This document shows positions 26,953 through 50,512 of a stretch of 64,000 bases of DNA, piece after piece. Within the stretch, counting starts at the first letter, position 1, and each line of letters opens with the position of its first letter. A program made the position numbers and the translations under genes. The notes under the pieces were generated by a model. The model did not search any database, had not been told where the DNA came from, and was given only the letters and a program-made list of their open reading frames with translations. Source of the DNA: Escherichia coli (GTDB lineage: Bacteria > Pseudomonadota > Gammaproteobacteria > Enterobacterales > Enterobacteriaceae); NCBI RefSeq assembly GCF_030013205.1, contig NZ_CP122648.1. One strand, written 5' to 3'.

Positions 26953-27338
26953 GACGTATCGCCTGATTTGCTACCCGTCATGACTGTGATTCCGCCAACA
27001 TCAACGGTAACACGCGGCATTCGGGATATTTCGTATGTCAAAGGTAACCGTTACCACTTTTCGCGCCTGGTTTTTTTAGTTTCACGACGAAAAAATGGTC
27101 TAAAACGTGATCAATTTAACACCTTGCTGATTGACCGTAAAGAAAGATGCGCTACATACAAGTGTAGCACCGTTTATTCTCTGTAAATTCCTTATTACGA
27201 CGGCGTGAAACTCCTGTCAGGATCCACTGCCAGACCTCATTTTACGGTTTGCGCAGGCGTCTACGTTTCACCACAACACTGACATCGCTCTGGCAAGGAT
27301 GTTAGGATGGACCACGGATGATAATGACGGTAACAAGC

Positions 27339-28280
27339 ATGTTAGACAATGTTTTAAGAATTGCCACACGCCAAAGCCCACTTGCACTCTGGCAGGCACA
27401 CTATGTCAAAGACAAGTTGATGGCGAGCCATCCGGGCCTGGTCGTTGAACTGGTACCGATGGTGACGCGCGGCGATGTGATTCTTGATACGCCGCTGGCG
27501 AAAGTAGGCGGAAAAGGCTTATTTGTAAAAGAGCTGGAAGTCGCGCTCCTCGAAAATCGCGCCGATATCGCCGTACATTCAATGAAAGATGTGCCGGTTG
27601 AATTCCCGCAAGGTCTGGGACTGGTCACTATTTGTGAGCGTGAAGATCCTCGCGATGCCTTTGTGTCCAATAACTATGACAGTCTGGATGCGTTACCGGC
27701 AGGCAGTATCGTCGGGACGTCCAGTTTACGTCGCCAGTGCCAACTGGCTGAACGCCGCCCGGATCTGATTATCCGCTCCCTGCGCGGCAACGTCGGCACT
27801 CGCCTGAGCAAACTGGATAACGGCGAATACGATGCCATCATTCTTGCCGTAGCCGGACTAAAACGTTTAGGTCTGGAGTCACGCATTCGCGCCGCGTTGC
27901 CACCCGAGATTTCTCTTCCGGCGGTAGGACAAGGTGCGGTGGGCATTGAATGCCGCCTTGATGATACACGCACTCGCGAGCTGCTTGCCGCGCTGAATCA
28001 CCACGAAACTGCACTGCGCGTTACCGCAGAACGCGCCATGAATACCCGTCTCGAAGGCGGATGTCAGGTACCAATTGGTAGCTACGCCGAGCTTATTGAT
28101 GGCGAAATCTGGCTGCGTGCGCTGGTCGGCGCGCCGGACGGTTCGCAGATTATTCGCGGTGAACGCCGCGGTGCGCCGCAAGATGCCGAACAAATGGGGA
28201 TTTCGCTGGCAGAAGAGCTACTGAATAACGGCGCGCGCGAGATCCTTGCTGAAGTCTATAACGGAGACGCCCCGGCATGA
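27339..28280 (+). CDS. hemC: porphobilinogen deaminase
   Basis: ORF track starts at 27318; trimmed to [20 protein letters not shown] (313 aa). Confidence 0.93.
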
Positions 28281-29017
28281 GTATCTTGGTCACCCGCCCG
28301 TCTCCCGCTGGAGAAGAGTTAGTGAGCCGTCTGCGCACACTGGGGCAGGTGGCCTGGCATTTTCCGCTGATTGAGTTTTCTCCGGGTCGACAATTACCGC
28401 AACTTGCTGATCAACTTGCAGCGCTGGGGGAGAGGGATCTGTTGTTTGCCCTCTCGCAACACGCGGTTGCTTTTGCCCAATCACAGCTGCATCAGCAAGA
28501 TCGTAAATGGCCCCGACTACCTGATTATTTCGCCATTGGACGCACCACCGCACTGGCGCTACATACCGTAAGCGGACAGAAGATTCTCTACCCGCAGGAT
28601 CGGGAAATCAGCGAAGTCTTGCTACAATTACCTGAATTACAAAATATTGCGGGCAAACGTGCGCTGATATTACGTGGCAATGGCGGTCGTGAGCTAATTG
28701 GGGATACCCTGACGGCGCGCGGTGCTGAGGTCACTTTTTGTGAATGTTATCAACGATGCGCAATCCATTACGATGGTGCAGAAGAAGCGATGCGCTGGCA
28801 ATCCCGCGAGGTGACGACGGTCGTTGTTACCAGCGGTGAAATGTTGCAGCAACTCTGGTCGCTGATCCCACAATGGTATCGTGAGCACTGGTTACTACAC
28901 TGTCGACTATTGGTCGTCAGTGAGCGTTTGGCGAAACTCGCCCGGGAACTGGGCTGGCAAGACATTAAGGTCGCCGATAACGCTGACAACGATGCGCTTT
29001 TACGGGCATTACAATAA
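28277..29017 (+). CDS. hemD: uroporphyrinogen-III synthase
   Basis: 246 aa; overlaps hemC stop by 4 bp. Confidence 0.9.
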
Positions 29018-29038: not shown

Positions 29039-30232
29039 ATGACGGAACAAGAAAAAACCTCCGCCGTGGTTGAAGAGACCAGGGAGGCCGTGGACACCAC
29101 GTCACAACCTGTCGCAACAGAAAAAAAGAGTAAGAACAATACCGCATTGATTCTCAGCGCGGTGGCTATTGCTATTGCTCTGGCGGCGGGCGTCGGTTTG
29201 TATGGCTGGGGTAAACAACAGGCCGTCAATCAGACTGCCACCAGCGATGCCCTGGCTAATCAACTGACGGCACTGCAAAAAGCCCAGGAGAGCCAAAAAG
29301 CTGAGCTGGAAGGCATTATCAAGCAACAAGCTGTACAGCTTGAGCAGGCGAATCGTCAGCAAGAAACGCTGGCAAAACAGTTGGATGAAGTCCAACAAAA
29401 GGTCGCCACCATTTCCGGCAGCGATGCTAAAACCTGGCTGCTGGCTCAGGCCGATTTTCTGGTGAAACTCGCAGGACGGAAGCTGTGGAGCGATCAAGAC
29501 GTCACGACCGCTGCAGCGTTGCTGAAAAGTGCAGATGCCAGCCTGGCGGATATGAATGACCCGAGTCTGATTACCGTTCGTCGGGCAATTACCGATGATA
29601 TCGCCAGCCTTTCTGCGGTATCGCAGGTGGATTATGACGGCATCATCCTTAAGCTTAATCAGCTTTCAAATCAGGTAGATAACCTGCGTCTGGCCGATAA
29701 TGACAGCGATGGTTCGCCGATGGATTCCGACGGTGAAGAGCTTTCCAGTTCCATCAGCGAATGGCGTATCAATCTACAAAAAAGCTGGCAGAACTTTATG
29801 GACAACTTCATTACGATTCGCCGTCGTGATGACACCGCCGTACCGCTGTTAGCGCCAAATCAGGATATCTATCTGCGCGAAAATATTCGCTCTCGCCTGC
29901 TGGTCGCGGCACAAGCCGTACCGCGTCATCAGGAAGAGACTTATCGCCAGGCGCTGGAGAACGTCTCCACTTGGGTACGTGCTTACTACGATACTGATGA
30001 TGCCACCACCAAAGCGTTCCTCGACGAGGTGGACCAGTTAAGCCAGCAAAATATCTCGATGGATCTCCCGGAAACCCTGCAAAGCCAGGCGATGCTGGAA
30101 AAACTGATGCAGACTCGCGTGCGTAACCTGTTGGCACAACCGGCAGCGGGGACAACGGAAGCTAAACCTGCACCTGCACCTGCACCTGCACCGCAAGCTG
30201 ATACTCCGGCAGCCGCGCCGCAAGGAGAATAA
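29039..30232 (+). CDS. hemX: HemX, membrane-anchored coiled-coil protein
   Basis: 397 aa; N-terminal TM, Gln/Ala-rich coiled coil, C-terminal [10 protein letters not shown]. Confidence 0.88.
30167..30192 (+). repeat. hexanucleotide tandem repeat (cctgca x4 plus partial) encoding (PA)n at the hemX C-terminus
   Basis: Four perfect copies read directly. Confidence 0.85.
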
Positions 30233-30234
30233 CC

Positions 30235-31431
30235 ATGCTAAAAGTGTTATTGCTCTTTGTTTTGCTGATTGCGGGGATAGTGGTTGGCCCGATGATTGCC
30301 GGTCATCAGGGTTACGTATTGATTCAGACCGACAACTACAATATTGAAACCAGCGTCACTGGCCTGGCGATTATTTTGATTCTGGCGATGGTAGTGCTGT
30401 TTGCCATTGAGTGGCTACTGCGGCGGATCTTCCGCACAGGCGCACACACCCGTGGGTGGTTTGTCGGACGTAAGCGTCGCCGTGCCCGTAAGCAGACCGA
30501 ACAGGCGCTGCTGAAACTAGCGGAAGGCGATTATCAGCAAGTTGAAAAGCTGATGGCGAAAAATGCCGATCACGCTGAACAACCGGTGGTGAACTATCTA
30601 CTGGCTGCCGAAGCCGCGCAACAACGTGGTGATGAAGCACGCGCCAACCAACATCTGGAACGCGCAGCGGAGCTGGCCGGCAATGACACCATTCCGGTAG
30701 AAATCACCCGTGTACGTCTGCAACTGGCCCGTAATGAAAACCATGCTGCACGCCACGGCGTGGATAAGCTGCTGGAAGTTACGCCACGCCATCCGGAAGT
30801 ATTACGTCTGGCGGAACAGGCGTATATCCGCACAGGTGCATGGAGTTCGCTGCTGGATATCATCCCATCAATGGCGAAAGCCCATGTTGGTGATGAAGAA
30901 CATCGTGCAATGCTGGAACAACAGGCATGGATTGGCCTGATGGATCAGGCGCGTGCCGATAACGGTAGCGAAGGTTTGCGTAACTGGTGGAAAAACCAAA
31001 GCCGGAAAACGCGTCATCAGGTGGCGTTGCAGGTGGCAATGGCGGAACATCTTATTGAATGTGACGATCATGATACTGCCCAGCAAATTATCATCGACGG
31101 CCTGAAACGCCAGTATGACGATCGCCTACTGCTGCCGATCCCGCGTCTGAAAACCAATAACCCGGAACAGCTTGAAAAAGTGCTGCGCCAGCAAATCAAA
31201 AACGTCGGCGATCGCCCGCTGTTGTGGAGCACACTGGGTCAGTCGCTGATGAAGCACGGAGAATGGCAGGAAGCATCGCTCGCCTTCCGCGCAGCGCTGA
31301 AACAACGTCCGGACGCCTACGATTACGCATGGCTTGCCGACGCGCTGGACAGACTGCACAAACCAGAAGAAGCTGCAGCGATGCGCCGCGACGGTTTGAT
31401 GTTAACGTTGCAGAACAACCCGCCACAGTAG
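30235..31431 (+). CDS. hemY: HemY, TPR-containing inner membrane protein
   Basis: 398 aa; two N-terminal TM segments. Confidence 0.88.
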   Translation: MLKVLLLFVLLIAGIVVGPMIAGHQGYVLIQTDNYNIETSVTGLAIILILAMVVLFAIEWLLRRIFRTGAHTRGWFVGRKRRRARKQTEQALLKLAEGDYQQVEKLMAKNADHAEQPVVNYLLAAEAAQQRGDEARANQHLERAAELAGNDTIPVEITRVRLQLARNENHAARHGVDKLLEVTPRHPEVLRLAEQAYIRTGAWSSLLDIIPSMAKAHVGDEEHRAMLEQQAWIGLMDQARADNGSEGLRNWWKNQSRKTRHQVALQVAMAEHLIECDDHDTAQQIIIDGLKRQYDDRLLLPIPRLKTNNPEQLEKVLRQQIKNVGDRPLLWSTLGQSLMKHGEWQEASLAFRAALKQRPDAYDYAWLADALDRLHKPEEAAAMRRDGLMLTLQNNPPQ

Positions 31432-31478: not shown

Positions 31479-31685
31479 AAAAAAACGCCTGCTCTTATTA
31501 CGGAGCAGGCGTTAAAACAGGTCTGTATGACAACAAGTGGGTGCTTCACTCAACGTTGTGTCCATGGTGTCTGATGAGGCATAAGCGACATCTGTCAGTG
31601 GACGATAAGCACCGTAAACGGCTCTGCGTCATTCCGGAGTTTATGAGGCTCTAAGGCGAACATAAGAGATGGAATGAGCATCTAC
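31479..31685 (-). ncRNA. glmZ: GlmZ small RNA (regulator of glmS)
   Basis: Reverse complement begins GTAGATGCTCATTCCATCTCTTATGTTCGCC and ends in a hairpin GCCTGCTCCGTAATAAGAGCAGGCG plus U tract, matching GlmZ as I recall it; lies between hemY and aslA as in E. coli. Confidence 0.8.
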
Positions 31686-35249: not shown

Positions 35250-35326
35250 TGGTCGGCGAGAGAGGATTCGAACCTCCGACCCACTGGTCCCAAACCAGTT
35301 GCGCTACCAAGCTGCGCTACTCGCCG
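35250..35326 (-). tRNA. proM: tRNA-Pro (anticodon UGG)
   Basis: Reverse complement CGGCGAGTAGCGCAGCTTGGTAGCGCAACTGGTTTGGGACCAGTGGGTCGGAGGTTCGAATCCTCTCTCGCCGACCA. Confidence 0.92.
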
Positions 35327-35368
35327 AAATACTGCTTTTTGAATTTTTAGTTCAATTCTTTAAAGTCG

Positions 35369-35455
35369 TGGTGCGAGGGGGGGGACTTGAACCCCCACGT
35401 CCGTAAGGACACTAACACCTGAAGCTAGCGCGTCTACCAATTCCGCCACCTTCGC
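35369..35455 (-). tRNA. leuT: tRNA-Leu (anticodon CAG)
   Basis: Reverse complement GCGAAGGTGGCGGAATTGGTAGACGCGCTAGCTTCAGGTG...CGCACCA with long variable arm. Confidence 0.92.
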
Positions 35456-35475
35456 ATTGTCACAACTTCTAATAA

Positions 35476-35552
35476 TGGGGTGGCTAATGGGATTCGAACC
35501 CACGACAACTGGAATCACAATCCAGGGCTCTACCAACTGAGCTATAGCCACC
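35476..35552 (-). tRNA. hisR: tRNA-His (anticodon GUG)
   Basis: Reverse complement GGTGGCTATAGCTCAGTTGGTAGAGCCCTGGATTGTGATTCCAGTTGTCGTGGGTTCGAATCCCATTAGCCACCCCA. Confidence 0.92.
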
Positions 35553-35609
35553 ACTACAAATCTTGTTACGCGGTATTACTACCACCGCAGCTCAAGCGCC
35601 GGGACTAAA

Positions 35610-35686
<77 letters not shown>

Positions 35687-50052: not shown

Positions 50053-50382
50053 TTACGCCAGATTAGCGTCGAGGAACTCTTTCAACTGACCTTTAGACAG
50101 TGCGCCCACTTTGGTTGCCGCCACTTCACCGTTTTTGAACAGTAGCAGAGTCGGGATACCACGGATGCCATATTTCGGCGCAGTGCCAGGGTTTTGATCG
50201 ATGTTCAGTTTTGCAACGGTCAGTTTGCCCTGATATTCGTCAGCGATTTCATCCAGAATCGGGGCGATCATTTTGCACGGACCGCACCACTCTGCCCAGA
50301 AATCGACGAGGATCGCCCCGTCCGCTTTGAGTACATCCGTGTCAAAACTGTCGTCAGTCAGGTGAATAATTTTATCGCTCAT
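50053..50382 (-). CDS. trxA: thioredoxin 1
   Basis: ORF track is over-extended to 144 aa; trimmed to [13 protein letters not shown] start (109 aa); WCGPC active site. Confidence 0.96.
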
Positions 50383-50512
50383 ATATAACTCCACAGGAAT
50401 AAGCCTGGCGTGTTGGTTTCGTTGTTGGTGTAACATTAACCAACTAAAGGTTGACTTTATTTCACCGGATACGCTTTCGTAAAGCAATAGTAAGCTGATA
50501 TTCTACCACACT

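Follow-up and report, generated by a model that had tools for sequence, protein, structure and literature searches.

A CCTGCA repeat encoding a Pro-Ala tract of variable length in the tail of Escherichia coli HemX corresponds to the typing locus CVN014

Perfect short repeats are subject to replication slippage, a process that leads to gains and losses of whole units, to pure tracts and to a broad spectrum of alleles. In the phase-variable contingency loci of Haemophilus, Neisseria and Campylobacter, simple-sequence repeats of this general kind switch genes on and off. Tracts rich in alanine and proline are familiar in a separate setting, that of interdomain linkers joining two folded parts of a protein, as exemplified by the OmpA hinge, the proline-rich spacer of TonB and the lipoyl-domain linkers of pyruvate dehydrogenase E2. 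In E. coli, variable-number tandem repeats (VNTRs) serve in typing by MLVA, with loci designated CVN001 to CVN017 in the literature. One of these, CVN014, belongs to both GECM-7 and GECM-10 and is attributed to Lindstedt et al. 2007 (in PMC3407997, PMC8143711 and PMC5217547); it was the most variable locus of a 10-locus assay (PMC3877011). Its primers, together with the formula (product size - 111)/6 from which copy number is calculated, are given in PMC8143711.

Here we describe a perfect hexanucleotide repeat within hemX, found in a 64,000-nucleotide stretch of E. coli DNA (contig NZ_CP122648.1 of assembly GCF_030013205.1), the whole of which is referred to below as the window. The tract is CVN014, an already known and long-used locus of the generic E. 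coli MLVA scheme. We consider it best explained, with a probability of roughly 85%, as a VNTR arising by slippage in a length-tolerant tail of HemX and serving mainly as a strain marker.

The CCTGCA tract and its correspondence with CVN014

Four perfect copies of cctgca, followed by a further cc at 30191-30192, can be read directly off the window sequence at positions 30167-30190, and Tandem Repeats Finder reports the array as 30166-30192 with a period of 6, 4.5 copies, 100% matches and a score of 54 (Table 1). The four tandem copies recorded near the 3' end of hemX by the first-pass annotation are therefore real. No other perfect run of at least four copies with a unit of 4-9 bases is present in the 64-kb window, and at least four perfect hexamer copies appeared in none of 300 first-order Markov simulations of it. 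The tract is in frame with hemX: codon 377 begins at base 30167, and PAPAPAPA is encoded by codons 377-384. Thirteen residues lie between (Pro-Ala)4 and the hemX stop codon (30230-30232) of this 397-aa protein; placing the repeat at the 3' end of the gene, in the tail, was thus correct insofar as it lies near the C-terminus, but it does not form the very end. An ORF on the minus strand (30038-30223; 61 aa, rich in Arg and Cys) is a mirror image of the repeat and was not taken as a gene.

Table 1. Features of the hemX-hemY region, in window coordinates
Feature	Position	Strand	Remarks
hemX coding sequence, 397 aa	29039..30232	+	membrane helix ~34-58 (predicted), long helix, HemX domain 130-363, Ala/Pro-rich tail 367-397 (predicted unstructured)
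CVN014 'R' primer site GCAGCRGGGACAACGGAAGC	30143..30162	+	exact match; primer from PMC8143711 Table 1
Perfect hexanucleotide tandem repeat	30166..30192	+	CCTGCA x4 at 30167-30190; Tandem Repeats Finder register ACCTGC x4.5; encodes (Pro-Ala)4, HemX residues 377-384
Degenerate repeat unit ccggca (Pro-Ala)	30206..30211	+	downstream of the CCTGCA tract
AAGGAG, likely hemY Shine-Dalgarno	30222..30227	+	inside the last hemX codons CAA GGA GAA TAA; eight bases before the hemY ATG
hemY coding sequence	30235..31431	+	start 2 bases past the hemX stop, 44 bases past the last repeat unit
CVN014 'F' primer site TCCCCGCAATCAGCAAMACAAAGA	30254..30277	-	exact match, inside the start of hemY

The identity of this tract with CVN014 is established by the published primers, each of which matches the window once, the two facing each other with the tract between them (0 matches in 100 shuffles); the primers of all other loci in the MLVA scheme have no match in the window. 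The resulting amplicon, 30143-30277, is 135 bp long, and (135 - 111)/6 yields 4 copies, the very count read in the sequence, in agreement with both the 6-bp unit and the 111-bp offset of CVN014. Polymorphism of that locus would be expected to span roughly 1 to 12 copies; among complete genomes we observed 0 to 17.

Allele frequencies provide a further point of agreement. The estimates come not from a full census but from two sets, systematically sampled, each of about 60 genomes and together comprising 117 different ones, in which 2 copies were found in 16%, 3 in 3%, 4 in 10%, 5 in 12%, 6 in 18%, 7 in 9%, 8 in 9%, 9 in 7%, 10 in 6% and 11-17 in 8%, the rest consisting of one genome with 1 copy and one with 0 copies. 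The allelic diversity of this sample is 0.89, and the commonest allele accounts for no more than 18%. These shares are close to those listed for CVN014 in the flattened Table 3 of PMC5217547, namely 15% for 2 copies, 2% for 3, 5% for 4, 13% for 5, 20% for 6, 5% for 7, 11% for 8, 17% for 9, 6% for 10, 5% for 11 and 1% for 12. Among the open-access literature searched, we found no paper joining "hemX" with "VNTR" or "tandem repeat" for E. coli; hence, the assignment of CVN014 to the HemX tail rests on the primer mapping in this analysis.

Allele range and pace of change

The prediction that copy number would differ between strains, which was to be judged by whether it proved invariant in a large strain set, is amply borne out. 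The locus is present in 5,425 of 5,426 complete E. coli genomes, where it is far from invariant, ranging from 0 to at least 17 copies in 6-base steps. Matches to a 181-base query across the tract ranged in span from 163 to 259 bases (163, 169, 175, 181 and onward), in increments of 6 throughout except in two records, both of which were inspected, and a 281-base query across the locus gave the same pattern. A query bearing 25 copies retrieved genomes with 12 to 17; because diverged flanks rank lower in that search, the 17 copies that are the largest number among near-identical flanks set the maximum at 17 or above. With respect to the hemX-hemY junction as a whole, no match was obtained in one of the 5,426 genomes, one match lay on a plasmid, and a few genomes had two places of match.

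Alleles were read base by base in 13 records in addition to the window's own, giving 14 in all: 0 copies in NCTC11023, 1 in 13P484A, 2 in K-12 MC1061, 3 in O157:H7 ECP17-46, 4 in the window and in K_EC180 (whose locus matches the window at 100%), 6 in B C2566, 8 in MFDS1019527, 9 in CB6886, 11 in EC5, 13 in 2017C-4173W12, 15 in C6, 16 in ECO_2_R and 17 in ECO_1_S. In every one of the 14 the tract is uninterrupted CCTGCA, the reading frame is kept, and the ...PAAAPQGE end and stop codon are unchanged. As the unit comprises two codons, hemX is never switched on or off by copy number, and a phase-variable on/off switch can be ruled out on the basis of the 6-base unit, the maintenance of frame in 14/14 alleles, the common stop codon and the lack of a nearby promoter-like site.

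The allele devoid of repeats in NCTC11023 lacks 39 bases equivalent to 30167-30205 (the whole tract and the next 15 bases), an in-frame loss that joins GCTAAA directly to ccggca and leaves a HemX of 384 aa. This configuration suggests that the deletion arose by misalignment between the tract and the relic unit ccggca. The true frequency of 0-copy alleles is probably near 1 in 5,425, because the single such genome ranked last in the whole list. A second in-frame length variant occurs upstream of the tract, at about window positions 30149-30157, where MFDS1019527 has an additional 9-base deletion converting AAGTTEAK to AAEAK and where Escherichia sp. MOD1-EC7003 has AAAEAK.

The sequencing of short repeats is subject to error on some platforms, and length differences of this kind might be attributed to errors of sequencing or assembly. 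That explanation is effectively refuted by the differences themselves, which are all whole multiples of 6 and occur in finished genomes from many laboratories, by the mutual consistency of laboratory lineages (2 units in K-12, 6 in B, 12 in the M12 series), and by capillary-electrophoresis MLVA, which independently gives nearly the same allele distribution (PMC5217547).

The pace at which the tract changes is apparent from its flanks. Four genomes with 0 mismatches over a 2.8-kb flank (1.4 kb on each side, with the tract removed) carry 9, 13, 16 and 17 units; between other genome pairs, this flank has 20 to 75 differing sites. ECO_1_S (from blood, 17 units) and ECO_2_R (from urine, 16 units), both from Seoul, are identical over 5 kb on each side; the pair appear to be related, and the difference between them looks like a recent change of a single unit. 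The same two genomes carry the longest alleles seen. The codon three positions past the tract is GCT or GGT (PQA or PQG), and each form occurs with short and with long tracts. Variation is also found within recognized groups, as 3 units are present in one O157:H7 genome and 5 in another, and the CVN014 range reported for ST131 isolates is 2 to 11 copies (PMC3407997). Laboratory lineages are stable: the unit count is 2 in every K-12 derivative encountered, 6 in B and in Rosetta2, and 12 in strain M12 as well as in each of the 11 "capsule mutant" genomes derived from it. Such constancy implies that the rate per generation is not extreme. The tract therefore changes much faster than flanking sequence acquires point mutations, yet not at every passage. 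Allele differences of whole units, uninterrupted tracts and change independent of the flanking haplotype are the features of a VNTR, and this pattern of alleles points to slippage as the probable mechanism.

These properties bear on a published scan for selection. In a set of 92 wastewater E. coli genomes, hemX was by far the top "positively selected" gene, with an omega of 21.9 and p of 7e-128 (PMC9110714). With the tract left out, the hemX sequences of 11 genomes show a pN/pS of about 0.08 and variation at 8 of 390 residues, indicating purifying selection outside the tract. The reported signal is probably an alignment artefact of the CCTGCA repeat, and such repeats can mislead codon-based selection scans.

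The HemX tail and the hemY junction

The ORF at 29039-30232 matches the Pfam family HemX (PF04375) over residues 130-363, with an E value of 3.8e-108 and 361 bits vs a cut-off of 25.9. A profile match above the curated cut-off and the hemCDXY gene order both place its product in the HemX family; Pfam matches in adjoining ORFs locate hemC and hemD at 27318-29017 and hemY immediately downstream (Table 1), and the orthologous gene in E. coli genomes is annotated hemX by RefSeq. For hemC, the mechanical ORF list begins at 27318 (27318-28280, 320 aa) vs 313 aa (942 bases) in the RefSeq orthologue, and the true start is probably the ATG 21 bases downstream of 27318.

HemX has a single strongly hydrophobic segment at about residues 34-58, with KKSK just before it. 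Such an arrangement is suggestive, under the positive-inside rule, of an N-in, C-out topology that would place the tail in the periplasm. No solved structure was found for HemX or any relative. In an AlphaFold2 model built on 82 diverse homologues (mean pLDDT 82.8), a long helix at 36-126 is followed by a helical domain, mostly above 90 pLDDT, the last helix of the model occupies residues 348-366, and residues 367-397 form a coil with pLDDT of 56-61; as modelled, the tail is probably disordered. The first-pass annotation had described the repeat as encoding a Pro-Ala linker. The (Pro-Ala)4 stretch is indeed encoded, but "linker" is loose usage, as nothing folded lies beyond the tract; an interdomain Pro/Ala linker is ruled out by the end of the last helix at 366 and by the low-confidence coil that extends through the 13 residues past the tract.

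Homologous proteins differ widely in this region. A search of 1.8 billion representative proteins identified 5,846 HemX homologues, and their matches mostly stop near query residues 355-370. In the 82 diverse homologues, tails range from 2 to 99 aa (median 12) and are rich in E, A, P, T, S and Q, with no conserved sequence. A tail tolerant of length is thus supported by the end of the domain at 363, by the low-pLDDT coil, by the variable tails of homologues, by the absence of the run in Salmonella and by the one strain that lacks the tract and five more residues. On these grounds, we propose that the perfect CCTGCA tract would misalign by whole units during replication, such that units are gained or lost; that each change, the unit being two codons for Pro-Ala, would be in frame; and that it would merely alter the length of the unstructured, Ala/Pro-rich segment that trails the folded HemX domain. 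If the tail tolerates every length seen, from 0 to 17 units, the locus would be expected to drift quickly and to serve mainly as a strain marker.

Occurrence of the tract in related taxa must be weighed in this context. Elsewhere in the genus, CCTGCA is found in 6 units in E. albertii, 6 in E. whittamii, 7 in Escherichia sp. E1V33 and 2 in Escherichia sp. MOD1-EC7003. When one genome per species was scanned for the exact pattern, 4 of the matches were Escherichia hemX loci; the 36 others were two-copy, lay outside any HemX-like gene and are most likely due to chance. Close relatives keep a RNLLAQP...PA(A/T)APQGE frame, the middle of which differs: Salmonella HemX has no Pro-Ala run at the tract position, C. 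koseri has one short run, and the C. freundii / C. gillenii group has (AP)3-5. In C. sedlakii, HemX proteins carry PAA once, twice or three times at the position matching the E. coli tract, which suggests an independent variable repeat of 9 bases in the same tail in another genus.

The persistence of the CCTGCA unit across several Escherichia species, and the presence in Citrobacter of its own short Pro/Ala repeats at the same position (including (PAA)1-3 in C. sedlakii), could be taken to mean that the length of the run is adaptively tuned, the run acting as a stiff spacer of selected length that sets, for example, the reach of the ...PAAAPQGE end in the periplasm, with mutability as a contingency mechanism. 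Escherichia, Citrobacter and Salmonella do share a conserved extreme C-terminus, as this proposal would have it, and HemX is known to engage other proteins: two-hybrid tests showed binding to YhcB in three species, and both YhcB and YciS were co-purified with it (PMC8163987). Nevertheless, we regard adaptive tuning as unlikely. The broad distribution of lengths among the 117 genomes, and the wide differences in copy number between closely related genomes, both speak against a selected length; in Salmonella and numerous distant homologues the spacer is missing or the tail is just 2-6 residues long, and NCTC11023 dispenses with the tract altogether. In addition, the conserved QGE is encoded where the hemY Shine-Dalgarno sequence lies, and this overlap could account for the conservation of QGE in the absence of a function in the protein. 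The stronger proposal, that selection on Pro-Ala length determines how far, or how flexibly, the C-terminus of HemX extends within the envelope and that the hypermutable tract is a graded, in-frame contingency locus, we consider quite improbable; were it true, E. coli lineages could quickly retune the length of the HemX tail and the tract would not be a neutral marker.

An effect at the RNA level is the other alternative suggested by this arrangement of genes, in which 44 bases separate the tract from the start of hemY and hemX itself contains the hemY Shine-Dalgarno sequence. Copy number might then alter mRNA structure upstream of hemY and tune its translation, and the pairing of the Shine-Dalgarno sequence in the folded model would fit a translational coupling of hemY to hemX. 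In the folded RNA of the hemX-hemY junction, however, the predicted probability of being unpaired is equal for 0 to 17 units, at about 0.0 for the Shine-Dalgarno sequence and about 0.64 for the ATG; the spacing of stop codon, Shine-Dalgarno sequence and ATG is unaffected by the tract, and no promoter-like site is found in 29800-30500. Tuning of hemY by the repeat is accordingly a very remote prospect. The conserved ...QGE end of HemX may itself reflect the hemY ribosome-binding site rather than a function of the protein. Other RNA features of the window include a full-length Rfam match (218 bits) to the small RNA GlmZ (SraJ) at 31479-31685 on the minus strand, just downstream of hemY, and, also on the minus strand, four clustered tRNA genes (for Pro, Leu, His and Arg) at 35250-35686 and a match to the TrxA 5'-UTR thermometer at 50353-50452.

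We thus return to slippage in a length-tolerant tail as the preferred explanation, under which the length of the tract most likely has no functional meaning. Since the tract is kept in several Escherichia species and is absent from one examined genome only, some constraint favoring a Pro-Ala stretch is nonetheless possible.

Comparison with known repeat systems

The practical role of the tract is that of a fast-evolving strain marker, already in use in E. coli outbreak typing, and no open biological question hangs on its recognition in hemX. Our analysis adds the assignment of CVN014 to the Ala/Pro-rich tail of HemX, a range of alleles extending from a deletion lacking the tract to 17 copies, and the documentation of change amid an identical 2.8-kb flank.

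Among the systems with which the tract can be compared, CVN014 is the same locus, as judged by primers, 6-bp unit, 111-bp offset, allele range and frequencies, with no difference between them. Other VNTRs, in-frame or intergenic, that serve for MLVA in enterobacteria, such as the STTR loci of Salmonella Typhimurium (PMC5183578), resemble CVN014 in having short perfect units that change faster than SNPs and in their use as epidemiological markers; they differ in residing in other genes and having other units, and the hemX gene of Salmonella is without a Pro-Ala run at the tract position. With the phase-variable contingency loci, the hemX tract shares a slippage-prone perfect repeat inside a coding sequence, but its 6-base unit holds the frame constant, and 14/14 alleles are full-length with the same C-terminal end. 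It is like the Ala/Pro-rich interdomain linkers in composition and, probably, in an extended, non-globular conformation; unlike them, it is followed by just 13 unstructured residues.
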